In this document: piece after piece, positions 10,431 to 64,000 of the stretch | Layout: each line of letters starts with the position of its first letter | Numbering within the stretch: the first letter of the stretch is position 1 | NCBI GenBank assembly: GCA_965205295.1 | Contig: OZ242167.1 | Span: forward strand, 4,618,048-4,682,047 | Reading direction: 5' to 3' | Length of the DNA stretch: 64,000 nt | Origin: Candidatus Multivorans sp. | GTDB taxonomy: Bacteria > Acidobacteriota > Thermoanaerobaculia > Multivoradales > Multivoraceae | Position numbers and translations under genes: made by a program | The notes under the pieces: generated by a model | The model's input: the letters and a program-made list of their open reading frames with translations, nothing else | Databases searched by the model: none | Told to the model about the DNA's origin: nothing

Positions 10431-10874
10431 ATGATGAGGGATGGACATCGCTTTCGCAGGACCGTAGGGCTCGGCTCTGCCGTACTGGCCTTGACGCTCG
10501 CGGCCGCGGCCTTCGCGCACCTCAAGGCGCTCAAGACCAGTCCGGAGGACGGTGCAGCCCTGAGCGGTCCTGTACGCACTCTCCGGGTCTTCTTCAACCA
10601 GGAGCCGGACCTGCCGCTGAGCAAGCTCGAACTCGAAGGGCCGCGGGGCCCGCTGAGCGTCGAGGGCCTGCACACGATGGGCGAGAAGGACCTGATGGCC
10701 AGGGTTTCGGGCCGCATGCCCGACGGCGCCTACACCGCGCGCTGGCAGACGGCGGGCGACGACGGGCACGTCCTCAAGGGCGAGTGGGCGTTCACGATTG
10801 CCAGGGAGGTTCGAGCTGTCGAGCCCGCCCTTGCGCCGGGTGAGTTCGCACGCCTTGACCGCGGCGGTCGCTGA
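10431..10874 (+). CDS. copC: CopC-domain copper-binding periplasmic protein
   Basis: ATG at 10431. Signal peptide ends ..AAAAFA, followed by HLKALKTSPEDGAALSGPVRTLRVFF (mature N-terminal His plus the S-P-x-x-G pattern) and ..YTARWQTAGDDGHVLKGEWAFTI. A copD gene lies 2.2 kb downstream. Confidence 0.75.
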   Translation: MMRDGHRFRRTVGLGSAVLALTLAAAAFAHLKALKTSPEDGAALSGPVRTLRVFFNQEPDLPLSKLELEGPRGPLSVEGLHTMGEKDLMARVSGRMPDGAYTARWQTAGDDGHVLKGEWAFTIAREVRAVEPALAPGEFARLDRGGR

Positions 10875-10877
10875 ACC

Positions 10878-10922
10878 GCTGGCGGCAGCCGCCGCACTGA
10901 CCACGCTCGGCACGTTCTTGCA
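10878..10922 (+). pseudogene. copD-like relic (matches internal copD codons around 13326-13370) fused directly after the copC stop
   Basis: gctggcggcagccgccgcactgaccacgctcggcacgttcttgca aligns with copD gcaagcggctgccgccgcattgaccacgctcggtatgttcaccgc (roughly 34 of 40 identical by eye). The same relic recurs at 21636-21680 and 24248-24292. Confidence 0.6.
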
Positions 10923-10951
10923 CCTTGCGGTTCTTCGCGTCCCGCGGACCG

Positions 10952-12715
10952 CTACGGCTCGCAGCTATCGGCGAATGCCGCGACATCGGTGATCGCGGGG
11001 GCCGGGGCGCCGGGCTCGTTCAGGTACTCCCGGATCTCGCCGGTCACGGTGTCCGTGACCTCGATCCGGTAGCCGAGGTCCGTTGTGGCAGCGCTGAACA
11101 CCCAGACGCGACCGTTCACCTCACAGCCGTCCAGGATCTTGATCAGCGTTTCCCAGTTCTGACTCCTGAAGAACCAGAACATCCCGGAGTCGTTGGTGCC
11201 CCCCCGGACGACGTTGCCCATGCCCGTGCTGCCGTCCTGCGCCGACCAGTGAGTGCGCACCGCGAAGCGGGAGTGCCGCAGGCAGAGCGTCTCGCGGTCC
11301 GCCGTACAGGTCCCGGCCGGGTCGCTCGCCTCGACCAGGAACGTCCGTGAGGCGGTTGACTCCTCGTTGCCGTCGGCGACGGTGAGCGTCACTGTGTAGA
11401 AGCCGGGCTCGCCCCAGGCGCGGCTGCCGGTGGTGGAAGTCGCGCTGCGGTCGTCGCCGAAGCTCCACTCGCGGATGCGCACCGCCCCGGTGCTGGTGTC
11501 GACGAATCGGACGTTATCGCCGGTCAGCGCCCGGCAGAGGTCGTCGGGACAGTCGACGTCGACGGTGAAGGACGCCTTCAACGGGCCGGGTTCAGGTTCG
11601 GGTTCAGGTTCAGGCTCTGGTTCAGGCTCGGGCTGAGGCGGCGGTGGCGACGTGGTGGGCGGCGGCGGCGGCGGTGGCGGTTCTTGCGTCGGCGGGTCCT
11701 GCGGTGGCGGTTCCTGCGGCGGCGGCGGTGGCGGGTCCTGCGTCGGCGGGTCCTGGGTCAGCTCTTGCGTGGTTGCGGAGTCGACGTTCGACGGAGTTCC
11801 CGTGCCGACGGTGTTGATGGCCGAGACCCTGTAGTGGCGGGTCTGGTTGAGCGAAAAGCCGGTGTGGCTGTAGGAGGTGTTCGTGTTGCCCGTGTTGGCC
11901 GCGAGCACGGTCCAGGGGGCGTTGCCGTCGGCGGACCACTCGATCTTGTAACCCGTGATGCGCGCGCCGCCGTTGTTTGAAGGAGCGGTCCATGTCAGGT
12001 CGATCTGCGAGCTTCCGTTCGCCCTCGCCGTCAACGTTGGAGCGCTCGCCACGGCAAGGGGTGTGCTCCTCGGCGCGCCGTTCAGGGCGACCTGAACATT
12101 CCACTTCGACCAGACCTTCCAAGAGCTGCTCTTGGGTACCCATGTGTGGAATGCGTCCGGCAAGCTCCATCCCGTTTCGCCCGGTTCGCCCGTTTCGTAG
12201 TCGGAGTCGATGAGGTCGAAGTACAAATGGTCGGAGGGGGAGAGTGAGTAGAACCTCAGGTGGTAGGTCGTCTCTGGAAGGAGCGCGGTGTCGTCCGGCA
12301 GGGTGAAGGTGACGATGTGGTTGCCCGCCTTCAACCACCAAGGCCAAGGGTCGGGTGGTGAGAGCTCCGCTTCAACCGTTTCGGTGAGGCTCGTTCCGGC
12401 GACGCTGCCCTTGACGAGCGCCACCCTCGGGGTGGGTGAAAACCGTTCGTAGACGTAGACCTTGACCTCGACGGCGGCGAGGTCGTAGCCGTTCGCATGG
12501 CTGCCGGTCGTGAACTCCTGTGCGAAGTCATCTCCGGTCATTGCTTCTTGGCGTGGCTCGCCGATGCTGGAGAGGAACGTGGTCGTCTGGGCGACTGCCG
12601 GCAGCGCAAGCAGCGAGGCGACCGCCGGCGCCGCGAGGACGGCGAGCACACGGGCGTGAGCGATGTTCCACTTGTGGGCGCCCGGCTTGTACCGCGGCGC
12701 CCGAGCGTTGTGCAT
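10952..12715 (-). CDS. Secreted FN3/PKD/Cys-CTD family protein, paralog A (N-module, 1 FN3, Pro-rich + (PE)7 linker, PKD, CTD)
   Basis: Start chosen at ATG 12715 (MHNARAP..ARVLAVLAAPAVASLLALPAVAQ signal), because the family upstream motif sits at 12745-12765. FN3: IDLTWTAPSNNGGARITGYKIEWSADGNAPW..RHYRVSAIN. PKD-like: ASFTVD..FVDTSTG..WSFGDD..GFYTVTLTVADG. CTD: CTADRETLCLRHSRFAV..MFWFF..LDGCEVNGRVWVF..SCEP. Confidence 0.8.
   Translation of the reverse strand: MHNARAPRYKPGAHKWNIAHARVLAVLAAPAVASLLALPAVAQTTTFLSSIGEPRQEAMTGDDFAQEFTTGSHANGYDLAAVEVKVYVYERFSPTPRVALVKGSVAGTSLTETVEAELSPPDPWPWWLKAGNHIVTFTLPDDTALLPETTYHLRFYSLSPSDHLYFDLIDSDYETGEPGETGWSLPDAFHTWVPKSSSWKVWSKWNVQVALNGAPRSTPLAVASAPTLTARANGSSQIDLTWTAPSNNGGARITGYKIEWSADGNAPWTVLAANTGNTNTSYSHTGFSLNQTRHYRVSAINTVGTGTPSNVDSATTQELTQDPPTQDPPPPPPQEPPPQDPPTQEPPPPPPPPTTSPPPPQPEPEPEPEPEPEPEPGPLKASFTVDVDCPDDLCRALTGDNVRFVDTSTGAVRIREWSFGDDRSATSTTGSRAWGEPGFYTVTLTVADGNEESTASRTFLVEASDPAGTCTADRETLCLRHSRFAVRTHWSAQDGSTGMGNVVRGGTNDSGMFWFFRSQNWETLIKILDGCEVNGRVWVFSAATTDLGYRIEVTDTVTGEIREYLNEPGAPAPAITDVAAFADSCEP
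11588..11635 (-). repeat. (GGYTCR)n hexanucleotide microsatellite encoding a (PE)n linker, paralog A
   Basis: gggttcaggttcgggttcaggttcaggctctggttcaggctcggg encodes PEPEPEPEPEPEPEP. Confidence 0.85.
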
Positions 12716-15761: not shown

Positions 15762-18700
15762 CTACGGCTCGCAGCTATCGGCGAATGCCGCGACGTCGGT
15801 GATGGCGGGGGCCGGAGCGCCCGGCTCGTTCCGGTACTCCCGGATTTCGCCGGTCCCGGTGTCCGTGACCTCGATCCGGTAACCGAGGTCCGTTGTGGTA
15901 GCGCCGAACACCCAGACGCGACCGTTCACCTCACAGCCGTCCAGGACCTTGATCAGCGTTTCCCAGTTCGCGGTGTCGAAGAACCAGAACATCCCGGAGT
16001 CGTTGGTGCCTTCCCGGACGACCGTGCCGTTGCCCGTCGTGCCGTCCGGCAGCCACCAGTCGATCCGGACCGCGAAGCGGGAGTGCCGCAGGCAGAGCGT
16101 CTCCCGATCCGCCGTACAGGTCCCGGCCGGGATGCTCGCCTCGACCAGGAACGTCCGTGAGGCGGTTGACTCCTCGTCGCCGCCGGCGACGGTGAGCGTC
16201 ACTGTGTAGAAGCCGGGCTCGCCCCAGGCGCGGCTGGCGGTGGTGGAAGTCGCCCTGCGGTCGTCGCCGAAGCTCCAGCGGCGTGTGCGCACCGCCCCGG
16301 TGCTGGTGTCGAAGAATCGGACGGCCTCGCCGGTCAGCGCCCGGCAGAGGTCGTCGGGACAGTCGACGTCGACGGTGAAGGACGCCTTCAACAGGTTTGG
16401 CGTGGTGGCGGAGGCGGCGCTCGACGGGGGGCCCGTGCCGGCGGAGTTGATGGCCGAGACCCGGCAGTGGCGGGTCTGGCCGGGCTGCAGGCCGGTGGTG
16501 CTGTGGGAGGTGGTCGGGCTGCCCGTGTTCGCCACGAGATCGTTCCAGGGGGCGTTGCCGTCGGCGGACCACTCGATCTTGTAGCCGCTGATGTCCGCGC
16601 CGCCGTCGTTCGCGGGGGCGGTCCATAGCAGGTCGATCCGGGTGTTCCCGCTTGCCGTCGCCGAGAGCGACGTGGGAGCGTCCGGGGCGACCGCATCGGT
16701 GGTGGCGGAGGCGCCGCTCGACGGGGCGCCCGTGGCGGCGGAGTTGATGGCCGAGACCCGGTAGTGGCGGGTCTGGCCGGGCTGCAGGCCGGTGTTGCTG
16801 TAGGAGGTGGTCGTGCTGCCCGTGTCGGCCACGAGATCGTTCCAGGGGGCGTTGCCGTCGGCGGACCACTCGATCTTGTAGCCGGTGATATCAGCGCCGC
16901 CGTCGTCCGCGGGTGCGGTCCAGCTCAGGTCGATCCGGGTGGTCCCGCTTGCCGCCGCCGAGAGCGACGTGGGAGCGTCCGGGGCGTCCGCATCGGTGGT
17001 TGCGGAGGCGGCGCTCGACGGGGGGCCCGTGCCGACGGAGTTGATGGCCGAGACCCGGCAGTGGCGGGTCTGGCCGGGCTGCAGGCCGGTGTTGTTGTAG
17101 GTGGTGGTCGTGCTGCCCGTGTCGGCCACGAGCTCGTTCCAGGGGGCGTTGCCGTCTGCGGACCACTCGATGTTGTAGCCGGTGATGTCCCCGCCGCCGT
17201 CGTTCGCGGGGGCGGTCCATAGCAGGTCGATCCGGGTGTTCCCGCTTGCCGTCGCCGAGAGCGACGTGGGAGCGTCCGGGGCGACCGCATCGGTGGTGGC
17301 GGAGGCGGCACTCGACGGGACGCCCGTGCCGGCGGAGTTGATCGCCGAGACCCGGTAGTGGCGGGTCTGGCCGGGCTGCAGGCCGGTGTTGTTGTAGGTG
17401 GTGGTCGTGCTGCCCGTGTCGGCCACGAGCTCGTTCCAGGGGGCGTTGCCGTCGGCGGACCACTCGATGTTGTAGCCGGTGATGTCAGCGCCGCCGTCGT
17501 CCGCGGGTGCGGTCCAGCTCAGGTCGATCCGGGTGGTCCCGTTTGCCGTCGCCGAGAGCGACGTGGGAGCGTCCGGGGCGTTCGCATCGGTGGTTGTGGA
17601 GGCGGCGCTCGACGGAGAGCCCGTGCCGGCGGAGTTGATGGCCGAGACCCGGTAGTGGCGGGTGTCGCCGGGCTGCAGGCCGGTGTTGCTGTAGGAGGTG
17701 GTCGTGCTGCCGGTGTCGGCCACGAGATCGGCCCTGGGGGCGTTGCCGTCGGCGGACCACTCGATCTTGTAGCCGGTGATATCAGCGCCGCCGTCGTTCG
17801 CGGGGGCGGTCCATAGCAGGTCGATCCGGGTGTTCCCGCTTGCCGTCGCCGAGAGCGACGTGGGAGCGTCCGGGGCGACCGCATCGGTGGTGGCGGAGGC
17901 GGCACTCGACGGGACGCCCGTGCCGGCGGAGTTGATCGCCGAGACCCGGTAGTGGCGGGTCTGGCCGGGCTGCAGGCCGGTGTTGTTGTAGGTGGTGGTC
18001 GTGCTGCCCGTGTCGGCCACGAGCTCGTTCCAGGGGGCGTTGCCGTCGGCGGACCACTCGATCTTGTAGCCGGTGATGTCAGCGCCGCCGTCGTCCGCGG
18101 GTGCGGTCCAGCTCAGGTCGATCCGGGTGGTCCCGTTTGCCGTCGCCGAGAGCGACGTGGGAGCGTCCGGGGCGTTCGCATCGGTGGTTGCGGAGGCGGC
18201 GCTCGACGGGGCGCCCGTGCCGGCGGAGTTGATGGCCGAGACCTGGTAGTGGCGGGTCTGGCCGGGCTGCAGGCCGGTGTTGTTGTAGGTGGTGGTGGTG
18301 CTGCCGGTGTCGGCCACGAGCTCGTTCCAGGGGGCGTTGCCGTCGGCGGACCACTCGATGTTGTAGCCGGTGATGTCAGCGCCGCCGTCGTCCGCGGGTG
18401 CGGTCCAGCTCAGGTCGATCCGGGTGGTCCCGTTTGCCGTCGCCGAAAGCGACGTGGGAGCGTCCGGGGCGTTCGCATCGGTGGTTGCGGAGGCGGCGCT
18501 CGACGGGGTGCCCGTGCCGGCGGAGTTGATGGCCGAGACCTGGTAGTGGCGGGTCTGGCCGGGCTGCAGGCCGGTGTTGTTGTAGGTGGTGGTGGTGCTG
18601 CCCGTGTCGGCCACGAGCTCGTTCCAGGGGGCGTTGCCGTCGGCGGACCACTCGATCTTGTAGCCGGTGATGTCCCCGCCGCCGTCGTCCGCGGGGGCGG

Positions 18701-39486: not shown

Positions 39487-40581
39487 ATGCGTTTCGAACG
39501 AGCCGCTGTCACCCCTTCTACTCTTGGCGCCCTCTCGATCATTGGCGTCGCCGTGCTGGTGGCGGCGCCGGTCATAGCCGCCGGTGACGACATCCCGCGC
39601 ACCGCGGACGGCAAGCCCGACCTGAGCGGCCGCTACAACATCGCGAGCTCGACTCCGTTCGTACGGGATGCGCGCTTCGGGGACAAGAAGTTCATGAGCG
39701 TCGAGGAGGCGGAGCGGATCATGGCGGCGACCGCGGCGGCGATGGCCAAGGCCAACGCCGCCAGCGATCCCAACCGGTCGGCGCCTCCGGCCGGCGGTGA
39801 CGGTTCCGGCGGTCCCGCGGGTGCGGTCGGCGGCTACAACGCCTTCTGGACCGACAGCGGCAGTGCGCGCTACGCGATCGACGGTCAGTTCCAGACCTCC
39901 ATCCTCACCGATCCGCCGGACGGCCGCATGCCGCCGGTGTCGGAAGCGGGCAAGGCGCGCCGCGCCAATCTGCATCCCTACGCGTACGAGAACACCGGGA
40001 CTGCCTGGTGGATCGAGACCGGCGACGATCCCTACGACGGTCCGGAGACGCTGTCCCTGCTGGACCGCTGCCTGTATCTCAGCGCCGCCGCGACTCCGGC
40101 CCGGCCCATCCTCTACAACAACATGAAGACGATCACCCAGACCGAGGACCACGTCGTGATCCTGGTCGAGTGGATGCACTGGGCGAAGGTCGTGCGCCTC
40201 AACGCGGAACACGCGCCCGCCGACGTGCGGTCGCTCGGCGGCGACTCGATCGGCTGGTGGGAAGGCGACACCCTGGTCGTCGAGACGACGAACTTCCTCG
40301 ATCGACCCGGCGTGTCGCGCGAAGGCTTGAAGGTGATCGAGCGCTTCACCCGCCAGAGCGCGGACGGGCTGCTCTACGAGTTCACCGTCCTCGACCCGGA
40401 CTACACCGCGCCCTACAGCGGCGAGTTCATCTGGCCGCAGACGGACGAACAGAACTACGAGTACGCCTGCCACGAAGGCAACTACGCGATGGGCGGCATC
40501 CTGCGCGGCGCGCGGCTGCTGGAGCGTGAGTACCACGAGAAGAAAAGTCAGGCCGGCAGCACAGGCTCCGGGGACGAGTAG
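39487..40581 (+). CDS. Conserved exported hypothetical protein, family paralog 1 of 4 in this window
   Basis: 364 aa with a GGAGGA Shine-Dalgarno sequence upstream. Signal peptide. Shared family motifs: GKPDLSGRY, DPPDGRMP, WEGDTLVVETTNF, ERFTR, YEYACHEGNYAM. Confidence 0.7.
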   Translation: MRFERAAVTPSTLGALSIIGVAVLVAAPVIAAGDDIPRTADGKPDLSGRYNIASSTPFVRDARFGDKKFMSVEEAERIMAATAAAMAKANAASDPNRSAPPAGGDGSGGPAGAVGGYNAFWTDSGSARYAIDGQFQTSILTDPPDGRMPPVSEAGKARRANLHPYAYENTGTAWWIETGDDPYDGPETLSLLDRCLYLSAAATPARPILYNNMKTITQTEDHVVILVEWMHWAKVVRLNAEHAPADVRSLGGDSIGWWEGDTLVVETTNFLDRPGVSREGLKVIERFTRQSADGLLYEFTVLDPDYTAPYSGEFIWPQTDEQNYEYACHEGNYAMGGILRGARLLEREYHEKKSQAGSTGSGDE

Positions 40582-40594
40582 CCGCAAGGGCGCG

Positions 40595-42136
40595 ATGGAG
40601 ACGTTCTCCTACGACGCGTGGGATCGTCTGCTGTCTGCGGTCGTAGCCGAGGACGGCAAGGTCGACTACGAGCGTCTCGCCGCCCGGCGTCCCCTGCTCG
40701 AGGAGTTCGTCGCTGAACTCGGCGAAGTCTCGCCGGACAGTCGGCCGGACCTGTTCGCGAGCGAGGAAGACGGGCTCGCCTACTGGATCAACGCCTACAA
40801 CGCGTTCACCCTGCACGCGATCGTGGACGAGTATCCGATCCGCTCCGTCTGGAAGACGCGGGACGGCCAGTTCTTCCAGCGACGGCGGCACCTGGCCGGC
40901 GGCACAGCAGTCAGCCTCGACGACATCGAGCACGAGATTCTGCGCTCGGAGTTCGCGGAACCCCGGATCCACTTCGCGATCAATTGCGGCGCGAACGGTT
41001 GCCCGGCAGTGCGGCCCTCGGCCTACCGCGGCGACGGGCTTCGCGACACGTTGCACGAGGCGACGAAGGCGTTCCTGGCCAACCGCTGGAACTGCCGGGT
41101 GGACCACGACGCGCGCAAGGTCTTCGTCTCTCGCATCTTCCGGATGTACGCGGAGGACTTCGCAGCCGGGGCGGGAACGACGGAGGAGTACCGGCGCGGC
41201 GTATTGGGCTTCGTCGCCGGGTACGCCGGTCTCGATGCGGAGCGGATCGCCGGCTACGAGCTCGTCTACAACACCTACGACTGGGGTCTGAACGACACCC
41301 ACCGCGACCCGAACATCGGCCCGATCACGTTTCACGAGCCGGTGGAGCACTTCGCCGAGGCCGACGGTGAACTTCGCGAGCTGCACCTCTACGAGGGGAA
41401 CTTCTGCAACCGGGACTGCTCCTGGTGCACGATCCACGGTTCGCCCGACGGCTGGTACCAGGCCTACACGCCGGAGGTCCTCGACCAGGCGCTCGACACC
41501 CTCGCCGCGGACGGCAACCTGAAGTTCTACGGCGGCGAGCCGACCTTGCACACGCCCGAGATCGTCGCCGCGATGCGTTACGTACGCGAGCGTGGCTTCA
41601 CCGGTTTGATCACCGTGTTCTCGAACGGCATCCAGGCGGAGAAGCTGATCGCGATCCTGGAGTCGGACCCGAAGAGCGAAGCGGTGCTCAACTACTCGAT
41701 CTACCACGGCCGCGACGCCAAACCCATGCCGCGGTACGCCAGGGACCGCCTGGAGCAGTGGGCGCGCGAGAACCCGAACCGCATCTTCCAGGGCTACAAG
41801 GTGCTCTTCCACGCCGGGGGCGGCGCGGAGGAGGAGTTCGACCAGGACCGGGAGTCGGACTACCACGGCATGGGCAACCGTTGCGTGCGTTGCTTCCCGG
41901 TGCTGACCACGAAGGGCAAGTTCCACGCCTGTCCCTTCGCTGCCGAGATCGATTCGCCGCACTTCGACCTCGGTGGGGTTGGTTCGAGTTCCGAGGCGGT
42001 ATTCGACAACTACCGCACCTTCCTGCAGTGGGTGGACGAGGAACTGGACCCGGCGGCCGAGGCCCGGGGCATCTCGAGTTGCGAGATGTGCCACCGGCGC
42101 CTGGCTGAACTGCCGGCGGCCGAGTTCGCAGGCTAG
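40595..42136 (+). CDS. DUF547 domain fused to a radical SAM / SPASM-like domain
   Basis: Start at ATG 40595 (METFSYDAW), 14 nt after the previous stop. DUF547: YWINAYNAFTLHAIV..HFAINCGANGCP. Radical SAM: FCNRDCSWC (Cx3Cx2C) and KFYGGEPTL. C-terminal Cys cluster: CVRCFPVLTTKGKFHACPF..SSCEMCH. Confidence 0.7.
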   Translation: METFSYDAWDRLLSAVVAEDGKVDYERLAARRPLLEEFVAELGEVSPDSRPDLFASEEDGLAYWINAYNAFTLHAIVDEYPIRSVWKTRDGQFFQRRRHLAGGTAVSLDDIEHEILRSEFAEPRIHFAINCGANGCPAVRPSAYRGDGLRDTLHEATKAFLANRWNCRVDHDARKVFVSRIFRMYAEDFAAGAGTTEEYRRGVLGFVAGYAGLDAERIAGYELVYNTYDWGLNDTHRDPNIGPITFHEPVEHFAEADGELRELHLYEGNFCNRDCSWCTIHGSPDGWYQAYTPEVLDQALDTLAADGNLKFYGGEPTLHTPEIVAAMRYVRERGFTGLITVFSNGIQAEKLIAILESDPKSEAVLNYSIYHGRDAKPMPRYARDRLEQWARENPNRIFQGYKVLFHAGGGAEEEFDQDRESDYHGMGNRCVRCFPVLTTKGKFHACPFAAEIDSPHFDLGGVGSSSEAVFDNYRTFLQWVDEELDPAAEARGISSCEMCHRRLAELPAAEFAG

Positions 42137-42147
42137 GAAGCGCCGCC

Positions 42148-43082
42148 TTGGAGGTTGGACGGGTCCTGACGGGCGGACGCCGACTCCACGCCGCGATCCT
42201 CGTCGCGGCGCTTCTGACGCTCGGAGCTCTGCTGCTCCACGCCCGCGAGTACCAGTTCCTCACAGACGACGCCTACATCTCCTTCCGCTACGCACGGAAT
42301 CTCGCCGACGGTCACGGCCTCGTCTTCAACCCCGGCTTCGAGCGGGTCGAGGGTTACACGAACCTGCTCTGGGTCCTGATCCTGGCCGCCGGCGCGCTCG
42401 CAGGCATTGCTCCGGAAGCCGCCGCGATCCCGCTCGGCTACGGCCTGACGATCGTGCTCTGGCTACTCGTCTGCGGGTTCGCGTACAGCGAAGCACGGCC
42501 GCGCGCCCCGCCGTGGATCTAGCTGCTGGCGCCGGTGATGCTGGCCGCCACACGCAGCGTCGCCGTGTGGTCCACGGGCGGGCTCGAGACCCGTCTGTTC
42601 GAAGTCCTGATCCTGGGCGCTGTCCTCCGGCTGGTGGTCGAGATCCGGGGCTCGGCTTCGAGCGTCTCGGCCGAGGCGCTTGGGCGACGATCGAGCGAGA
42701 GTTCGACTACGCGCTGTCGGTGGCGCCGGACGGGCAAGTCTCAGCCCTGGTGCGGCGGCCGCGCGGTGTCTCCTCCGCCCTGCCAACACGGATTCCGGTC
42801 CGGTCCGGGACAGGACGGATGCGGGGTTTCGTTGACGCCGTCGCGCCCGCGCCCACGCCGGGCGGCGCTGGGCCGCTTGCGAGGATGAACGTCCAAGGCT
42901 GGGCGTTCGGCGAGCGGGCCGGCGGCATCCTGGATCTGGTCATCTTCGCCGGCGAGATGCAGACGCCCTACGAGCGGGTCGACCTGACCGAACGGCCTGA
43001 TGTCGCGGCGACCCTGGGACCGGACTCCCGGAACAGCGGCTGGTTCGTCTCCACAAGGGTAGATGCCGAGACGGTTTCGTGA
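42148..43082 (+). pseudogene. Decayed membrane glycosyltransferase-like gene (DDAYISFRYARN-type N-terminus) with an in-frame TAG and an internal deletion/frame change
   Basis: The N-terminus ..LTDDAYISFRYARNLADGHGLVFNPGFERVEGYTNLLWVL.. stops at TAG 42520-42522. The same frame then continues ..LAATRSVAVWSTGGLETRLFEVLILG... After ~42650 the plausible coding signal moves to another frame (..MNVQGWAFGERAGGILDLVIFAGE..RPDVAATLG..), ending at 43082. Confidence 0.55.
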
Positions 43083-43978
43083 CGTTCGTCGCTACGGTGC
43101 TTGCGCAGACGCTGCCCTCGGCGCCTCAGTTGACCGGCTCGGTCTCGGGACGGACTCAGGCGCTGACATGGACCGGGGCTTCCGGCGGCGGGATCACGCG
43201 CTATCAGTTGCAGACCAGGGAATCGTCAGCGCACTCATGGCGCTTCACGGGCGCCGGTTCGCCGTCGCCTTCCTCGAACATGGGTTCCAGCGCGAGGTCA
43301 TGGAGCGTGGTTACCCCTTGGACGCTGTATCGGCAGTATCAGGTGCGGGCGACGAACGCGGTCGGGGACGGTCCATGGTCCAACGCCGTCGAACTGAGAA
43401 CGCCGCCGGCGCCGCCTCCGCCGCTGTCTGTGCCGGGGATCCCGAACTTTCCCGGTTTGGCGTCGGGCCGCACTTTGAGTACGGTGTTTCCGGCCGCAAC
43501 AGGAGGTACCCCGCCGTATTCCTACAGTTTGGCGGGTTTGCCGCCGGGACTCTCCTTCGTGGCGTCGACGCGCGTCGCGAGCGGAACGCTTCCGACGGTC
43601 ACGATCGCCACGACCTACACGATCACCTACGCAGTGACGGACAGCGCAGGGGCGTCTGTCAGCGTGACGTTCGCGGCTACCGTGGTTCCGCCGCCACCAC
43701 CATCACCGGTCTTGCCGGAGATTCCGGACTTCCCCGATTTGGCGTCGGGCCGCACGGTGAACGCAGTGCTGTTTCCTGCCGCAACGGGAGGCACCCCACC
43801 GTACTCCTACAGTTTGTCGGGTCTGCCGCCGGGACTCTCCTTCGTGGCGTCGACGCGCATCGCGAGCGGAACGCTTCCGACGGTCACGACTGCCACGACC
43901 TACACGATCACCTACTCCGTTACGGACAGCGCTGGGGCGTCTGCCAGCGAGACGTTCACAGCCACTGTCGTCCCCTGA
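43079..43978 (+). CDS. FN3 domain + two He_PIG-like (putative Ig) repeats; N-terminally truncated-looking
   Basis: 299 aa from GTG, with no n-region for a signal peptide. FN3: ..LTWTGASGGGITRYQLQ..YQVRATNAVGDGPWS. Two ~93-aa repeats: FPAATGGTPPYSYSL(A/S)GLPPGLSFVASTR(V/I)ASGTLPTVT..TYTITY.VTDSAGAS. Confidence 0.6.
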   Translation: MTFVATVLAQTLPSAPQLTGSVSGRTQALTWTGASGGGITRYQLQTRESSAHSWRFTGAGSPSPSSNMGSSARSWSVVTPWTLYRQYQVRATNAVGDGPWSNAVELRTPPAPPPPLSVPGIPNFPGLASGRTLSTVFPAATGGTPPYSYSLAGLPPGLSFVASTRVASGTLPTVTIATTYTITYAVTDSAGASVSVTFAATVVPPPPPSPVLPEIPDFPDLASGRTVNAVLFPAATGGTPPYSYSLSGLPPGLSFVASTRIASGTLPTVTTATTYTITYSVTDSAGASASETFTATVVP

Positions 43979-44160
43979 TGTCGGCGCTCCCTTGGGCGAT
44001 ACCGGGGGACGGCGGCCTACCGCTGAGGGAAGGGCGAGGCTAGTAGAGGGGCCCCGGGCCACCGGATTGGAAGATCGACACCTTGAACGGGAGTCGACGA
44101 AGTTGGGGACGATCTTGGGGGCCGACCGGCCCGCTACCGCCGGCGAATAGGATGCGCAAC

Positions 44161-45339
44161 ATGGCGCGGAGACTCGCTCTGCTCGGAGGCAGTCTGCCGT
44201 GGCTGGTTCTGCTGGCGTGGCTTTCGTCGGTGGCCTGGTTCCTGTGCGACGACGCCTTCATCAGCTTCCGGTATGTCCGCAATCTGGTGGAAGGACACGG
44301 TCTGGTCTTCAACCCCGGCGAGCGCGTGGAGGGGTACTCCAACTTCCTCTGGGTGCTCGAACTCGCGGGACTTTGGCGAGTCTTCGGGCTGCGCCCCGAG
44401 AACGCTGCTCCGTGGCTGTCGGTGGCATGCACGGTCGGCACGCTGGCGGCGACGGTGTGGTGGGCGATGCGACTTCCCGGGCTGCGGCGCCGGGCGCTCG
44501 CGACTTGGATGGCGCTGGGTCTGGTGTGCAGCAGCGCCACGTTCGCGGTGACTGGTGGCGGCGCACTTCCTGTTCCGCTACGCCTACTACGGAGAGTGGC
44601 TGCCGAACACCTACTACGCCAAGCACGGCTTTGCGGAAGGCATGGCGAGAGCGCAGAGACCTTCGGTACGCCCTGCCGCTTGTGTGCATCGGCCCGCACA
44701 TGGCCTACCTGTTCCGGATCGGCGGCGACTACTTCGAGTACCGCCCGCTCGACTACTACTGGCCGCTGCTGGCGGTTCCCGCGGCTGCTGGTGTGGTTCA
44801 CGCGGGGGCCATGGCTCCGGCCAACTGCAGCGACTGCGGTCGACGCCGCGGCCCTCAGGGCCGACAAGGCCGGCCGTATGCGCCGTCTTCCTGTTCGTGC
44901 CCGTCCTCTTCTTTACGAACTCATTGCAAGGCATGCTCCTGTTTCGAGGCGCCGCCACAGAGGGCGTCACGGACGCGTGGGACGGGTTGGGCGCCTCACG
45001 GATGCGACCGTTGCGCGCAACCCGGTGACTTGGCCCAACAGCGAGCGTTTCATGGCGCACGACCGAAGGCCGCCACCGGGGTACATTCTGGAGGAACGGG
45101 GAGTGAACGTCATGGTGCTCCCATCCGTGACCAGCGGGCAAGAGGGCCTCAAGCGCGCCGCGTACGCCCTTCGGGTCGGTCCCGATCTCTGGATGCCCTT
45201 CGATGCCGCCGACCATGATTGGGTCCTCGCGCACTTCGACCGGGGGAGGTTGCGCATGCGAGAAGATCGAGAGAGCCGCTGGGAAGTGCAAGTCAGGGCC
45301 ATCAGGAGGTACGAGGCGGGGGGAGTGGAGGCGCAGTAG
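44161..45339 (+). pseudogene. Second decayed membrane glycosyltransferase-like gene (multiple frameshifts/deletions)
   Basis: Frame 1: MARRLALLGG..FLCDDAFISFRYVRNLVEGHGLVFNPGERVEGYSNFLWVLE..SSATFAV. The coding signal then jumps to other frames: AAHFLFRYAYYGEWLPNTYYAK (ORF 44555..) and YALPLVCIGPHMAYLFRIGGDYFEYRPLDYYWPLLAVP (ORF 44199..). It returns to the first frame for the tail ..VLPSVTSGQEGLKRAAYALRVGPDLWMPFDAADHDW... Confidence 0.55.
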
Positions 45340-45413
45340 GCGCGGGCCGGAGTGTCTGCGCCTTCGTGGCTGCCGGGACTGAGGGCTTAGGCCCTTGCTC
45401 TCCTCGAGCGAAT

Positions 45414-46473
45414 CTACGCCGGCGCCTCGGCGACGCCGGATGACTTCGCGCCGCCCCAGCGGTTGAAGCCGAGTTCGCCGCGGACGTCGGCGGTGCGCTC
45501 CAGGGTCATCGCGTCGCTGGCGATGCCGGTCGAGTCCGCGACTCGGACGAGGCCGTTGAAGATGCCGACGGTGGCGGCGGCCTCGACGAACTTGGCCGGG
45601 CCCAGCGCGTCGGCGACGCGGGCGCGGACCGCGTCCAGATCGTCCGTTGCCCGCACCACGGCCTCGGCGAATGCGGTCAGGAGCGCGCCGTGCTCGACGC
45701 CGCCGTCAGCCGCGTCCTCCACCGTCGCGCTCAGGTCGACCTCGGCGCCAACCGCGTTGCTGCTCACCCGGAGCAGCATGGTGTGGGCGGTCGTTCAGTA
45801 GAAGCACTGGTTGAGGGCCGAGACCCTCGCGGCGATCAACTCGACCTGGGGCCTGGCAAGCGGCCGGTGGTCCCCACACCATCTCGGTGAAGTCGGTTCC
45901 GGTGCCCGCGTACATGGCAACCACCATGCGGAAGAAGGTGCGCACGCCTTGCGGCACCAGGCTCAGTGCGCGGGCAACGTTGGCGCGGTTCCAGTCGACC
46001 ACCTGGACGGGAACCCAGGCGCCGATGTCGCCCATGCCGTCCGGCCGTTCGCGGGTCGGTTCGCCGGTCTCGGGTTCGGGCAGGGGCTCGTGCTCGATGC
46101 CCATCGCTTCGCAGAAGGCGTCGGTGGCAACCGTGGTCACGACGACCGAGGCGAGTTCCACGTACGGCGCGTCGCCGAGCTCGGCGATGGCGCGTGCGGC
46201 CCATTCGCGGTCGAGGTGGGTCGGATCGGCGCCGATCTTGCGCGCCGCCTCGACCGCCTTCTCGGGCAGGGGCGCCGGCGGCGCCGAGCGGTTGCGGCTC
46301 CAGGGCGGCTCGTTGCGCTGGACGCGCTCGGCGCGTGCGAGAGCCGCGATGGCCACGCGTTCAGGGCCGGTCCACCAGGTGCCGGGCCGGCCGATGTCGG
46401 CCCACGACCGGCGCAGCGCGGTGGCCATGTCCTCGCGGACTGGAACGGGGAAGCGGTGGTCGTCGAAACTCAT
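45414..46473 (-). CDS. AhpD/carboxymuconolactone decarboxylase (CMD)-like protein; candidate selenoprotein (CFYU motif). Needs TGA recoding at 45795-45797 plus a 1-nt correction in a G-run near 45868
   Basis: Track ORFs 45706-46473 and 45414-45779 are one gene split in two. Reading the 45414 frame upstream gives ..GDHRPLARPQVELIAARVSALNQCFY-TGA-TTAHTMLLRV... TGA therefore sits where the CMD CxxC..H motif expects Cys. An 8-bp stem/5-nt loop hairpin starts 16 nt after the TGA. Confidence 0.5.
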
Positions 46474-46579: not shown

Positions 46580-47566
46580 CTACGGACTGCTGCCCGTCTT
46601 CTCCAGGTGACGGGCGCCGCTCAGCGTGTTGGTGACCGCCCAGTTCCCTTCGTGGCAGGCGTACTCGAACATCTCGTAGTTCGCATCGAAGTAGAGCGGG
46701 AGATTCACGCTCCAGGTATCCGTGTAGTTGACCGGATCTTCGATCGTGACGGTCCAGTCGATCGTGTGCTCGTCGAGCCGGGTGAAGCGCTCTTGTGTGA
46801 CCAGTTCGTTGCTCACGGGGATGCCCTTGATCCGGCCCTGGGAGCCGCTGGAGGCGATCCAGCCCTGGTCCGAGAAGTTCTTCGTTTCGACGACCAGCGT
46901 GTCGCCGTCCCAGTGGCCGCGGGAGTCGCCGTTCCAGAGGTGGATGTCTTCCGGGATGCGCTCCCGGCCATCGACCGGAATGAAACGGACGTCGTTGATC
47001 ATCTCGGAGTAGATGACCACGTACTCGGGCGTCTGCGCGATCCGGTAACCGTTGTTGTAGCCGGCCGGGAACAGGTGCCCGGGAACGCCGCGCGTGATGC
47101 AGCGGTCCCAGACGCTCATGTACTCGTACGAGTCGAACATCTTCACCAGGTTGTCCGCGCGCACCTGCTGCGCCTCCGGCCGCACCGGCACACGCCCGTT
47201 CGGGGGATCGACGACTTGGGATGTGCGCCGGCTGCCGACCACCTTGGTGCCGAGCTCCAGCCAGTGCAGGTTGTAGGCGCCGACGTTCTGGCCGGCCTCC
47301 GCCTTCTGTGCCGGTTGCTCGGCGCGATTCTCGATCATCGCCTGCCGGGCGGCTTCCTGCTGCGCGACCTCCTCTTCGGTCAGGAACGCCTTGTCGCCCA
47401 GCTCGACCGGCCGCTCGAAGGGCGTCAGGGTGGTGTTCGTCCAGAGGCCCTGGAGGTCCGGGTGGCCCCAGGGGGTGCGCGGCGTCTTCCAGTCGTCGGC
47501 CGCCAGAACGGGCGCCGCGAATAGTGCGGTCGCCACGGCAAGAGCGAGCGTGGTCCGTCCGATCAT
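46580..47566 (-). CDS. Conserved exported hypothetical protein, family paralog 2 of 4
   Basis: Start at ATG 47566 (MIGRTTLALAVATALFAAPVLA), preceded by GGAGGA. Motifs: GHPDLQGLW, DPPNGRVP, WDGDTLVVETKNF, ERFTR, FEYACHEGNWAV. Confidence 0.7.
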   Translation of the reverse strand: MIGRTTLALAVATALFAAPVLAADDWKTPRTPWGHPDLQGLWTNTTLTPFERPVELGDKAFLTEEEVAQQEAARQAMIENRAEQPAQKAEAGQNVGAYNLHWLELGTKVVGSRRTSQVVDPPNGRVPVRPEAQQVRADNLVKMFDSYEYMSVWDRCITRGVPGHLFPAGYNNGYRIAQTPEYVVIYSEMINDVRFIPVDGRERIPEDIHLWNGDSRGHWDGDTLVVETKNFSDQGWIASSGSQGRIKGIPVSNELVTQERFTRLDEHTIDWTVTIEDPVNYTDTWSVNLPLYFDANYEMFEYACHEGNWAVTNTLSGARHLEKTGSSP

Positions 47567-47624
47567 CGGTGACTTCCTCCGTGTTGGCTTTGATGGTTGG
47601 GAGGCTATCAACTCGCGGCTCGCC

Positions 47625-51639: not shown

Positions 51640-51681
51640 AGGAGGCGAGGTCTGCCTGAAGAATCGGAAGGAGTCGAAGGA

Positions 51682-53172
51682 ATGAAGCACATACCTCTTG
51701 CGACCATCGTTTGTTTCACGGCGGTTGCCGTCGGTTTCGCCGGCGCAGCGGCCGCGCAGGATGCGGACCTTGTGACCTCCTGGGGAGTGCCCGACCTGCA
51801 GGGCGCCTGGGACTTCCGCTCGATCACGCCGCTCGAGCGCCCGGCCGCCTTCGGCGACAAGGCGACCCTGACCGCCGAAGAGGCGGCGGCCTGGGAGCAG
51901 CGGCGCAAGGAAGAGCGCGCCGCAAGCGCCGCGCGGAGCGGCGGCGACGTCGACCCCAGCCAGGGCGACGTCGACGTGGGCTACAACTCGTTCTGGCTTG
52001 ACCAGGGCGAGAAGCTCTCCGGCACCATGCGGACCTCCCTGGTCGTCGATCCGCCGAACGGCCGTGTGCCGGCGATGACCGCCGATGCGCGGCGTCGCTA
52101 CGACGAACGCTACGCGCTCTGGGGCCAAGCCCCGGCCGGCCCGGAGGAGCGGAACACGTACGAGCGCTGCATCCTCGGCTTCAATGCCGGTCCGCCGATG
52201 ACCCCGGGGGCCTACAACAACATGATGGAGATCTTCCAGTCGACGGGCTACGTCGCGATCATGACCGAGATGATCAACGACCACCGGGTGATCCCGACCG
52301 ACGGCCGCGAGCACGCCGACGAACACATGCGCTTCTGGAAGGGCGACTCGTCAGGCGTCTGGGAAGGCGACACCTTCGTCGTGACGACGAAGAACTACAA
52401 CGAGCACACCGCGTTCCGCGGCACCGGCCCGAACCTGGTTCTCACCGAGCGCTTCACCCGCACCGGCCCCGACACTTTGCTCTACGAATACACCGTCAAC
52501 GACCCCGAGTCCTACGAGGCGCCCTGGACGAGCGCCCTCGAGATGCGGCGTACCGACGATCCGCTCCTCGAGTACGCCTGCCACGAGGGCAACCGCGCCA
52601 TGACCCTCATGCTCCGCGGCGCCCGCCACCGCGAACGGGAAGGCAAGGCCGAGGACGGCAAGGACTGGTTGGCGAGCTGGTACGGCGGCCAGAACCGGGT
52701 CGACGCGGCGAAGAAGGCGCTGGAGGCGGCGAAGGAAGAGGCGGGGGAGGCCCCAGCCGATCCTGGGCCGCAGACGGAACCCGAGCTCGAGCCACAGCCT
52801 GAGCCGGAGGGCGAACCCCAAGCGAACGCTGACGGGGACGAAGCGAAGGTTCACTCTACGTCGGACGTCGTGCCGCCCAGAAGGGTCAAGTCGCCGAAGA
52901 TCATCTACCCGAGTTCCGCCCAGGGAAGGGTGATCGTACAAGCCGTGATCAACGAGGAAGGAACCGTCGAAGATCTGAAGGTCCTTCGTGTCGAGGCCTC
53001 GGACTTCGTTGACGCAGCGTTGCATGCGATCGAGCGGTGGGAGTTCGAGCCTGCAATGCTCGATGGCAAGCCCGTACCTGTGTACTACAACGTGACGGTG
53101 AACTTCGCAGGGACGGAAAAGCCTGACGGGCCGGCAGAACGTCGCAGGAAGCGATCCAGGCAGATCCGCTAG
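51682..53172 (+). CDS. Family paralog 4 of 4, fused through an acidic/PE-rich linker to a TonB C-terminal-like domain
   Basis: 496 aa. Signal peptide. Motifs: GVPDLQGAW, DPPNGRVP, WEGDTFVVTTKNY, ERFTRTG, LEYACHEGNRAM. A linker follows (..PQTEPELEPQPEPEGEPQ..), then ..PPRRVKSPKIIYPSSAQGRVIVQAVINEEGTVEDLKVL..AALHAIERWEFEPAMLDGKPVPVYYNVTVNF (TonB_C pattern). Confidence 0.7.
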   Translation: MKHIPLATIVCFTAVAVGFAGAAAAQDADLVTSWGVPDLQGAWDFRSITPLERPAAFGDKATLTAEEAAAWEQRRKEERAASAARSGGDVDPSQGDVDVGYNSFWLDQGEKLSGTMRTSLVVDPPNGRVPAMTADARRRYDERYALWGQAPAGPEERNTYERCILGFNAGPPMTPGAYNNMMEIFQSTGYVAIMTEMINDHRVIPTDGREHADEHMRFWKGDSSGVWEGDTFVVTTKNYNEHTAFRGTGPNLVLTERFTRTGPDTLLYEYTVNDPESYEAPWTSALEMRRTDDPLLEYACHEGNRAMTLMLRGARHREREGKAEDGKDWLASWYGGQNRVDAAKKALEAAKEEAGEAPADPGPQTEPELEPQPEPEGEPQANADGDEAKVHSTSDVVPPRRVKSPKIIYPSSAQGRVIVQAVINEEGTVEDLKVLRVEASDFVDAALHAIERWEFEPAMLDGKPVPVYYNVTVNFAGTEKPDGPAERRRKRSRQIR

Positions 53173-62213: not shown

Positions 62214-63371
62214 ATGACCGGCATGAGGGGTTGGACCGGTTTACAGTGCCGGGAGGGATGCGATTTCCTCCAGTGGCTCGAGAAGGACCAGGCGCTTAGA
62301 GCGGGATTCAGTGGCTTGGCAGGAGCCTTGCACTCGCTTCTTGAGGATTGGGTTCGTACCGAAGAGGACGTACACGAGGTTTGGGCCGCAGTTCCGGCTG
62401 TGATCGGACAGTGCAACAAAGCGGCGACCTACGGAATGCCGGGTGCCGCACGCGCTTATGCTTGGATTCATCTTCTCGATCGCTATGTCCGGACCTGGCT
62501 CGCTTTGCAGCGGCTCGTTGAATACTCCATCCTGCCGATGGGCAGCGAAGGCGTGGGAGTGCTTGACGTCGGCACGGGCCCCGGACCGTCCGCTTTCGCA
62601 GTCCATGACTTCTTCGCCGCAATGGTCAGGTACAGCGAGGGCCCAGGAAGTCAGAGCTGGCGACAGCCGGCTCGAATCAACTGCGTGGAGTCCGCCGCCA
62701 GGATGAACCGCTTCCGGCACCACCTTGCCGAGCGCCTGTATGCCAACGGTGCCCAGAAATCTGTCTTGGACATGTGCAGGCACACTTTGGACTTTAGGTC
62801 GATCGACCCGGCCCGCGAGCGCGCAGAGTTGAACGCGCGGTTACGCGAGGCCTATGACGACTTCTACGACGAAGACAGGGGCGAGTGGGAGTCGGAGCAG
62901 TGCCATACCGCCGACGAGGCGAACGCAATGGCCAACGTTCTCCACCGCTATCGACTCCTTACCTTCAGTAACGTCCTGACGGAGATGTCCACAGTAAAGC
63001 GCTTCTGGCAGAACTTGGTGGACATCCTTTCCGACGCCCATCCGAGCTCGGTGTTGTTGCTCGTCGGAGGCAGAGGCCGCCACTATCCGAAAATATACGG
63101 CGATGTAGCCGGGCTCGCCCAGGATGCGGGCTTCTCCCGCGAAGCCGAATGCCCTCAAGTCTCTTGTTCGGACGCAGGAATGGACCGCCTGGTTCATGCT
63201 GAACAGGTCTGGTTCTATCGACGGCTCAGGAACTTCGTCGGCGACCTATCCGTTGCGGATCCCATTGCGAAAGATCTGAAAATTGAGTTCGAAGGCGAGA
63301 AGCCCGCCACGTTCGGCAAGAGTGACGTCCGTGCGTACAGGAAGCTCACATGGAGAACGGATCCTGGCTGA
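62214..63371 (+). CDS. Class I SAM-dependent methyltransferase-like protein (Rsm22-like), lower GC than its surroundings
   Basis: 385 aa. VLDVGTGPGPSAFAV is motif I. ..YRLLTFSNVLTEMS.. resembles the Rsm22 YVLxEL motif. Codon usage and composition are visibly less GC-rich. Confidence 0.55.
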   Translation: MTGMRGWTGLQCREGCDFLQWLEKDQALRAGFSGLAGALHSLLEDWVRTEEDVHEVWAAVPAVIGQCNKAATYGMPGAARAYAWIHLLDRYVRTWLALQRLVEYSILPMGSEGVGVLDVGTGPGPSAFAVHDFFAAMVRYSEGPGSQSWRQPARINCVESAARMNRFRHHLAERLYANGAQKSVLDMCRHTLDFRSIDPARERAELNARLREAYDDFYDEDRGEWESEQCHTADEANAMANVLHRYRLLTFSNVLTEMSTVKRFWQNLVDILSDAHPSSVLLLVGGRGRHYPKIYGDVAGLAQDAGFSREAECPQVSCSDAGMDRLVHAEQVWFYRRLRNFVGDLSVADPIAKDLKIEFEGEKPATFGKSDVRAYRKLTWRTDPG

Positions 63372-64000
63372 GTGCAAGTTCCTTCGCGCCCGGGGGACTC
63401 GTTTGTGCCGACGTGGAGCCCTGACAGGCCAGCCGTGGCTTGACCCGTGGGCGCGCTCATAGCGCGGCGTCGCGAGCTATTTCTAGTCCGAAGTTCTGAG
63501 CAGCAAGATGGGAAATCCCTTGTAGGTACGGGGCTTGTCGTGGATTCGGGTGTGTCCGGTACGACGCGGTTTCTGGTCAGCGTGGCGAGGTCGTCGATGA
63601 GGGTGTGGAAGCTGTGCACGGGGAATCCGTCGGGGGTGCGGCCGGAGTTGGCCTTGGTCCTTGCGGCGGTCGATTTCCGCGCCGGCTGGACGGGCGACGC
63701 GCGGTCGTCGGTCTTGCGGTGGTCGTCGAAGAGGATGGGCGCGAGGCGTCTTCGCATGTGCCACTCGACGTAGTAGGCGAGGACGCAGAGGAGGACATGG
63801 GCGCGCACGCGGCCGGCGAGCCGGTGATGCACGGGGCGCACCTTGAGGTCGACGCTCTTGAGGCAGCGGAAGGCTCGTTCGACGCGGCTGAGGCTCTTGT
63901 AGGAGCGGACGGCCTCGTCGGCGGGCAGGTCGGCCTCCGGGACGTTGGTTCGGATGACGTAGAGGCCGTCGAGGGCGGCTTCCTTGTCGATGCGCTCTTC
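63215..64000 (-). mobile_element. IS1634/IS4-like DDE transposase, C-terminal part only (gene continues beyond window end)
   Basis: The reverse strand, open from 64000, reads EERIDKEAALDGLYVIRTNVPEADLPADEAVRSYKSLSRVERAFRCLKSVDLKVRPVHHRLAGRVRAHVLLCVLAYYVEWHMRRRL..FHTLIDDLATLTRNRV... The frame runs on to 63215 and overlaps the methyltransferase 3' end. The true stop or IS end is therefore probably nearer 63.4-63.5 kb. IS terminal repeats were not identified. Confidence 0.65.

Follow-up and report, generated by a model that had tools for sequence, protein, structure and literature searches.

The closest described relatives of the gene considered here are the proteins of the NCBIfam family NF041238 (AhpD_rel_CFYUT). 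According to a 2026 review this CxxU selenoprotein, the 'AhpD-related protein', corresponds to what Zhang et al. in 2005 had called 'hypothetical protein 1' (PMC13188914), a family recognised by Zhang, Fomenko and Gladyshev in the Sargasso Sea, where four sequences showed a CXXU motif together with a predicted selenocysteine insertion sequence (SECIS) element (PMC1088965). The window, by which we mean the whole 64-kb stretch of 'Candidatus Multivorans' DNA that was analysed (68% G+C; all positions below are whole-window coordinates), carries on its minus strand a gene in which an in-frame TGA is followed by a small hairpin (Table 1). It is very probable that this TGA is the selenocysteine (Sec) codon of an NF041238-family gene and that the hairpin is its bacterial SECIS. 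The family is already described and curated and the close relatives of the gene are already annotated; a frameshift in this copy is the only new point.

The likeness to NF041238 extends over the whole protein. After removal of one G the gene has 352 codons, and the protein repaired in this way obtains 339.4 bits against the family profile (curated cutoff 175 bits), covering positions 1-355 of 357. The window gene has the same C-F-Y-U-T motif that gives the model its name, together with the xxH that follows, a CxxU redox pair and a SECIS hairpin whose small apical loop contains G; its protein is about 350 aa long, of which 200 aa form an N-terminal extension. Moreover, the closest database proteins, from metagenome-assembled genomes (MAGs) of Acidobacteriota, carry the name of this family. 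The only difference is the 1-nt insertion at 45872-45875, by which the gene as sequenced is split over two frames. In the minus-strand translation, frame A starts at ATG 46473, continues via MSFDDH...TDFTEMVWG and then turns into arginine-rich nonsense, while frame B reads ..GDHRPLARPQVELIAARVSALNQCFY*TTAHTMLLRVSS.. on to TAG 45414. The frame that bears the TGA is open for just 41 codons 5' of it (open reading frame (ORF) 45795-45920). When the parts were searched separately, the N-terminal frame obtained 148.8 bits, under the cutoff of the family, and a 150-aa C-terminal query (from 22 residues before the UGA, RPLARPQ..., to the stop, with the UGA read as Cys) obtained 178.6 bits.

The 'AhpD-like' selenoproteins (AhpD-like 1, COG2128 and TIGR01926; AhpD-like 2, PF02627) are known from the Sargasso Sea and Global Ocean Sampling (GOS) surveys (PMC1088965, PMC2398784). 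They share with the window protein the CMD/AhpD core, Sec at the second position of CxxU, a His four residues further on and a distribution in marine and soil metagenomes. These proteins are single-domain and of about 180-200 aa, whereas the window protein carries about 200 aa more as an additional N-terminal domain, and the TIGR01926/COG2128 family is more abundant than NF041238. The core was recognised by Pfam PF02627 (CMD; 29.1 bits against a gathering score of 23, residues 195-236 of a 353-aa fused query) and by TIGR00778 (ahpD_dom; 30.4 bits, cutoff 27.8); the score with TIGR01926 (peroxidase-related; 29.4 bits) is far under the cutoff of 81.8. Judged by these scores, the window gene is related to the TIGR01926/COG2128 'AhpD-like' family but is not a member of it. 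The original prediction, made from the letters of the window, had called the product an AhpD-like selenoprotein; the selenoprotein part holds, but the exact family is NF041238, and TIGR01926/COG2128, at only 29 bits, is its neighbour. That prediction did not contain the 200-residue N-terminal domain or the frameshift.

The Pfam search gave no domain match for the N-terminal ~200 residues. The C-terminal half aligns with solved structures of peroxidase-related and AhpD proteins, namely the TIGR01926-type 2pfx, 2oyo and 3c1l and the Deinococcus radiodurans AhpD 6k40, and the alignments to 2pfx and 6k40 run across the TGA to residue ~319. In the predicted structure of a homologue with Cys in place of Sec (P0082), the N-terminal 210 residues are helical with a predicted local distance difference test (pLDDT) score of ~75-98, and the C-terminal half, where the alignment is shallow, has pLDDT <50. 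Foldseek comparison of this model with the PDB gave weak matches (best E = 0.19), with AhpD-family structures and Sestrin2 on top.

Mycobacterium tuberculosis AhpD, with the residues Cys130, Cys133, His137 and Glu118 and the signature E-x11-C-x2-C-x3-H, provides the third comparison. Glu211, Cys223, Sec226 and His230 of the window protein have the same spacing, E-x11-C-x2-[C/U]-x3-H, the difference being Sec in place of the second Cys. The spacing suggests, by analogy, that the same proton-relay and dithiol chemistry may operate in the window protein. No AhpC/lipoamide-system partners, such as those of M. tuberculosis AhpD, were evident in the neighbourhood of the gene in the window.

Table 1. 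Positions of the AhpD-related selenoprotein gene, its predicted recoding elements and the frameshift in the window
Feature	Position	Strand	Remark
AhpD-related selenoprotein gene, whole	45414-46473	minus	ATG 46471-46473 to TAG 45414-45416
N-terminal part, frame A, residues 1-200 (MSFDDH...TDFTEMVW)	45876-46473	minus	matches NF041238 profile positions 1-203
GGGG run with one extra G (+1 insertion)	45872-45875	minus	GGG in the nine close relatives compared
GAG, Glu211	45840-45842	minus	E invariant in 21 aligned sequences
TGC, Cys223, first residue of CxxU	45804-45806	minus	Cys in 128/128 sequences
TGA, predicted selenocysteine codon U226	45795-45797	minus	follows Cys-Phe-Tyr
CAC, His230 of CxxUxxxH	45783-45785	minus	His in 128/128 sequences
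Predicted bacterial SECIS hairpin, 8-bp stem and 5-nt loop	45758-45778	minus
Coding sequence 3' of the UGA, 126 codons and TAG	45414-45794	minus	C-terminal half of the AhpD-like domain

The TGA codon and its conservation

On the minus strand the region reads ..GCC CTC AAC CAG TGC TTC TAC TGA ACG ACC GCC CAC ACC ATG CTG CTC CGG GTG AGC AGC AAC... The coordinates given in the original prediction for the TGA after Cys-Phe-Tyr, the His motif and the hairpin, with all distances between them, are exact. It had also placed the TGA at the second redox Cys of a CxxC motif, and this is borne out by alignment, as the TGA corresponds to the second Cys of the motif both in the solved structures 2pfx, 6k40, 3c1l and 2oyo (CFYC/CVYC) and in two full-length Cys homologues, P0082 and P0091 (CFYCTS).

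In the protein search 315 homologues were obtained. Among the 120 of them that were listed, most have a length of 213-257 aa, with 56-64% of the query covered, and each of the 18 homologue fragments that were aligned ends at ...CFY; such short lengths are what is expected where gene callers stop at a Sec UGA. Some of the homologues already bear the name 'alkylhydroperoxidase-related (seleno)protein [Acidobacteriota bacterium]'. When one genome for each species was scanned, 496 of the 599 matched stretches were confirmed to contain a relative. The closest ones come from 'Candidatus Multivorans' MAGs (Acidobacteriota), with up to 95% amino-acid identity, and homologues 94% identical have the gene in one frame. 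All 80 genome loci that were retrieved, which span Acidobacteriota, Myxococcota, Actinomycetota, Chloroflexota, Binatia and others, contain CFY-TGA-[T/A]xxH. Among the metagenome-derived sequences collected around the Cys form, 49 of 51 have TGA and two (L081 and L082) have TGT, a Cys codon. The comparison with Cys- and Sec-containing homologues, proposed earlier as a check, is thus in agreement with the prediction: TGA at every genome locus, and full-length Cys forms that are rare.

The part of the gene 3' of the TGA behaves as coding sequence. In all 128 sequences examined it stays in frame with constant spacing, and the ratio of nonsynonymous to synonymous substitution rates (dN/dS) is 0.13-0.24 downstream of the TGA and 0.12-0.25 upstream of it, with dS up to 0.76. 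Since dN/dS is equal on both sides, the downstream part is therefore translated within the same protein. The original prediction had considered that homologues might end naturally at the TGA and be followed by a separate gene; this is not so, given that the frame runs on for 126 codons under equal purifying selection.

At least six neighbouring genes end with the same triplet as a normal stop, and for this reason a genome-wide reassignment of UGA can be dismissed. A scan for further TGA codons that are in frame and flanked by coding signal both 5' and 3' gave nothing convincing.

The hairpin downstream of the TGA

Published criteria for bacterial SECIS elements ask for an apical loop of 3-9 nt, an upper stem of 4-16 bp, a G among the first two nucleotides of the loop, a UGA-to-loop distance of 16-37 nt and a minimum free energy (MFE) of -7.5 kcal/mol or lower (PMC13188914). 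The window hairpin, formed by UGCUGCUC (45771-45778) paired with GAGCAGCA (45758-45765) around the loop CGGGU (45766-45770), lies within all of these limits, and the SECIS-like character that had been proposed for it is supported in this respect. Its loop has 5 nt, with G at position 2 followed by another G, its stem has 8 bp, it begins 16 nt after the UGA with the loop at 24 nt, and the isolated hairpin folds with -12.2 kcal/mol. In a 66-nt context the fold has -27.3 kcal/mol (z = -2.1), a value equalled by 4 of 200 shuffled sequences. As in the bSECISearch consensus, for which Escherichia coli fdhF is the prototype, the stem-loop is placed inside the coding sequence just past the UGA and has G[G/U] at the start of the loop, but there is no sequence similarity between the fdhF element and the window hairpin.

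Hairpins of this kind are not scarce in the window. Perfect 8-bp hairpins with a loop of 3-9 nt and G in the first two loop positions occur 44 times per 128,000 strand positions, the chance that one lies 16-37 nt from one given TGA is ~0.008, and with 1,215 TGA triplets in the window about nine coincidences of TGA and hairpin are to be expected. The hairpin alone is unconvincing; its weight comes from which TGA precedes it and from its conservation in relatives.

This conservation was examined in 85 distinct sequences from several phyla. In the 8-bp helix 91% of cells are paired, compared with 22-63% when the partner columns are slid, and the five apical pairs are retained in at least 84 of the 85 sequences. 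The second position of the loop is an invariant G (G32) and the third is G or U. As the stem overlaps the conserved peptide LLRxSS, synonymous sites were tested over 128 sequences. Leu+7 is encoded by CTG in 93% of them, Leu+8 by CTC in 99%, and Ser+11 always by AGY; codon +10 ends in G in all 128, despite the residue varying among A, V, E, G, R and S, and where it encodes Ala it is GCG (85/85). Conserved Leu, Ala and Ser positions 5' of the UGA use 4-6 codons each, with an entropy of 1.4-1.75 bits. The freezing of synonymous sites in the hairpin reflects selection on the RNA, beyond that on the protein alone. The two Cys (TGT) loci, L081 (887-950) and L082 (3909-3970), differ from each other: the first has a perfect 8-bp, SECIS-like hairpin, which could be the fossil of a recent Sec-to-Cys change, and in the second the helix is lost.

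Tandem paralogues, both with CFY-TGA and a hairpin, were noted in several relatives from Chloroflexota/Dehalococcoidia (L054, L056, L065, L067, L068, L073, L074, L076, L077 and L078) and in one from Binatia (L069), at about 10650-11950 of the respective loci and at 9493-10598 in L078. The second copy has the loop GGUCG, and in L077 and L078 it also shows compensatory stem changes (G-C to C-G, U-A to A-U).

If decoding follows the pathway established for Sec in bacteria, the elongation factor SelB, carrying GTP and Sec-tRNA(Sec), would bind the apical loop 24 nt past the UGA as the ribosome nears it, through a loop in which the invariant G is followed by G or U, and would deliver Sec in place of termination by release factor 2. 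In the product Cys223 and Sec226 would form a redox pair (Cys223-x-x-Sec226), with Glu211 and His230 on either side. Because this is the same E-x11-C-x2-C-x3-H constellation as in AhpD-type alkylhydroperoxidases, it may act as a thiol/selenol oxidoreductase or as a peroxidase-related enzyme. As for the source organism, we infer Sec decoding from the fact that its closest relatives conserve the UGA, the SECIS and the frame downstream.

State of this copy and competing explanations

The window copy has TGGGGAC where all nine close relatives have TGGGAC (TGG GAC, Trp-Asp). The tblastn alignment switches frame at 45874/45872, 75 nt upstream of the UGA, and residues 1-200 are out of frame with the CxxU part. 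Apart from the UGA the relatives have one uninterrupted frame, which the window copy has not. The copy as sequenced is thus unable to make the full selenoprotein, a matter which bears on its functionality and not on its homology. When the DNA was aligned with the nine relatives, the extra G was the only clean window-specific 1-nt indel within a gene, and 13 of 13 other syntenic genes align with the relatives in a single frame. The rest of the selenoprotein gene is intact and its dN/dS to the nearest relatives is normal. Of the substitutions private to the window, six change an amino acid and four are silent, compared with 48 and 103 pooled in the relatives (Fisher p = 0.087); as this skew is not significant, it gives no evidence for relaxed selection.

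The extra G can be explained either by a real and very recent event, that is an inactivating mutation or a population variant, or by an error of the assembly, and we lean only slightly towards the former. A real mutation is favoured by the lack of other indel errors in the assembly, by the shortness of the run (just four bases) and by the adjoining convergent gene (44083-45339), which is a genuine decayed remnant. An artefact is favoured by the conservation of the gene in every related genome and by the fact that a single-base homopolymer indel is the commonest consensus error. The chances seem about even that a widely conserved selenoprotein gene is here just beginning to be lost from a 'Candidatus Multivorans'-like genome. 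A real frameshift would be a modest case of a selenoprotein being lost in a lineage of Acidobacteriota that has not been cultivated; an erroneous one would mark a fault in the consensus of the assembly. Neither outcome alters the knowledge of selenocysteine decoding. The value of the case is in annotation, since standard gene callers cut the NF041238 family at the UGA, so that most database homologues are fragments of ~225 aa ending in CFY, and the frameshift fragments the window gene further. The correct annotation is one selenoprotein gene of 352 codons, or a pseudogene.

Several observations weigh against the assignment of the TGA as a Sec codon with its SECIS. The stem shows little covariation (three pairs with compensatory changes, in nine cells, nevertheless with a score above all 500 shuffles), and its sequence is near-invariant and overlaps the protein motif LLRxSS. 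The Cys form L081 keeps the hairpin, so that the loss of the hairpin together with Sec rests on a single sequence, L082; with two Cys sequences this control is too small to carry weight, and the conservation of synonymous sites was used in its place. In Rfam the hairpin has no match: neither the whole window at the gathering threshold nor the segment 45700-45860 at E up to 10 gave a SECIS or tRNA-Sec family, the sole match in that segment being a noise microRNA on the wrong strand. This says little, as bacterial SECIS elements are poorly modelled there. Taken literally, the frameshift also means that ribosomes would reach the UGA of this copy out of the correct frame. Finally, selA, selB, selD and tRNA-Sec were not found in the 64-kb window, in which about 35 ORFs were scanned and ARAGORN detected no tRNA. 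In favour of the assignment, on the other hand, ARAGORN gave over all loci one tRNA-SeC (anticodon TCA), in the Myxococcota MAG locus L034 (9750-9848, minus strand), ~150 nt upstream of the NF041238 homologue. None of the flanking ORFs that were scanned there is a sel gene; they encode UvrA, a TPR protein, an M48 protease and the products of gcvPA and gcvPB.

The simplest alternative is that the TGA is an ordinary stop, the protein of ~225 aa ending at CFY and the ORF 45414-45779 being a separate gene or non-coding. Homologues are indeed annotated in this manner by gene callers (213-257 aa, with 18/18 of the aligned ones ending at CFY), and an ATG (Met232, 45777-45779) lies 15 nt past the TGA and opens that ORF. 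Nevertheless, a Met at +6 occurs in just 36% of the sequences, full-length Cys forms are known, the NF041238 profile and the alignments to 2pfx and 6k40 make both parts a single AhpD-like domain, and neither the constant frame and spacing (128/128) nor the downstream purifying selection, which equals that upstream, would be expected of it; we consider a simple stop highly improbable. The UGA might also be read as something other than Sec, either as Cys, through a SelC* tRNA(Cys) that resembles tRNA(Sec), or as another residue, through an allo-tRNA acting as opal suppressor. SelC* tRNA(Cys) has been found in Firmicutes, Thermodesulfobacteria, Nitrospirae and Proteobacteria, and allo-tRNAs, which are possible suppressors, in Acidobacteria, but SelC* is unreported in the latter (PMC5389517). 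Such a reading would also have to account for the retention of the UGA with a SelB-type hairpin across at least six phyla, for the canonical tRNA-SeC beside one member and for the curation of the family as a selenoprotein, and it seems quite improbable.

Two further explanations start from the damage in this copy. One supposes that the TGA arose from a Cys codon by nonsense mutation (TGC or TGT to TGA) in a decaying gene and that the hairpin is coincidental. The copy does have one disabling lesion, its neighbour is decayed, and about nine chance pairs of TGA and hairpin are expected in the window; but the same TGA and hairpin occur in 80/80 genomes and in 49/51 of the metagenome-derived sequences, and being present throughout the relatives they are ancestral and not a lesion of this copy. 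On this sequence comparison a nonsense mutation appears extremely improbable and is effectively already refuted. The other takes the extra G as real and supposes that ribosomes get past it by programmed +1 frameshifting at UGG GGA C, followed 75 nt on by Sec insertion, which would make two recoding events on one mRNA. It is favoured by the intact state of the remaining gene, that is the TGA, the SECIS and the downstream frame. The site, however, is missing from 9/9 close relatives and thus is not a conserved recoding signal, re-pairing from UGG to GGG would be poor, and the context is unlike that of prfB, in which a slippery codon precedes a stop or rare codon and is accompanied by a Shine-Dalgarno-like stimulator. 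Programmed frameshifting, barely conceivable at an unconserved site in an unsuitable context, was rejected. The Sec codon of an NF041238-family gene, in a copy interrupted by a single G, is the explanation that we retain.

Neighbouring genes and other features of the window

The pseudogene adjoining the selenoprotein gene (44083-45339, plus strand, in the region 42130-45414) is the decayed remnant of a 750-aa membrane protein with weak similarity to an arabinofuranosyltransferase model. The protein is intact in one relative (L002, 12177-14429, minus strand), and compared with it the window remnant has three internal deletions (~272, 89 and 263 nt) and frame changes. The whole 3.3-kb region is absent from three other relatives (L001, L003 and L004). 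Near the copy of the locus in L002 an ORF (15813-17027) is transposase-like by eye, and in the window itself an IS1634-family transposase runs off the end, its C-terminal part being included (63215-64000, minus strand). An open frame at 40337-42136 (plus strand) may combine DUF547 with a radical SAM domain; as relatives align with it from ~40589, its start and the fusion of the two domains are tentative.

Just upstream of the selenoprotein gene there is an unannotated 343-aa gene (46580-47611, minus strand), whose N-terminus is signal peptide-like by eye. It contains one arm (46876-47042) of a 167-nt inverted repeat, 70% complementary, whose other arm (52230-52396) is in a TonB_C-containing gene (51640-53172, plus strand). 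The two genes probably share a paralogous domain.

A literature search on 'Candidatus Multivorans' gave no match. On the minus strand between 13943 and 34391 there are five paralogous genes (574, 1895, 783, 2288 and 553 aa) composed of fibronectin type III and PKD domains, with ~40 tandem repeats of 297 nt (99 aa) that are 87-100% identical. The block, at about 13923-34660, is absent from three relatives (L001, L004 and L006) and has the appearance of 'eukaryote-like' adhesin repeats that have expanded in this lineage specifically.

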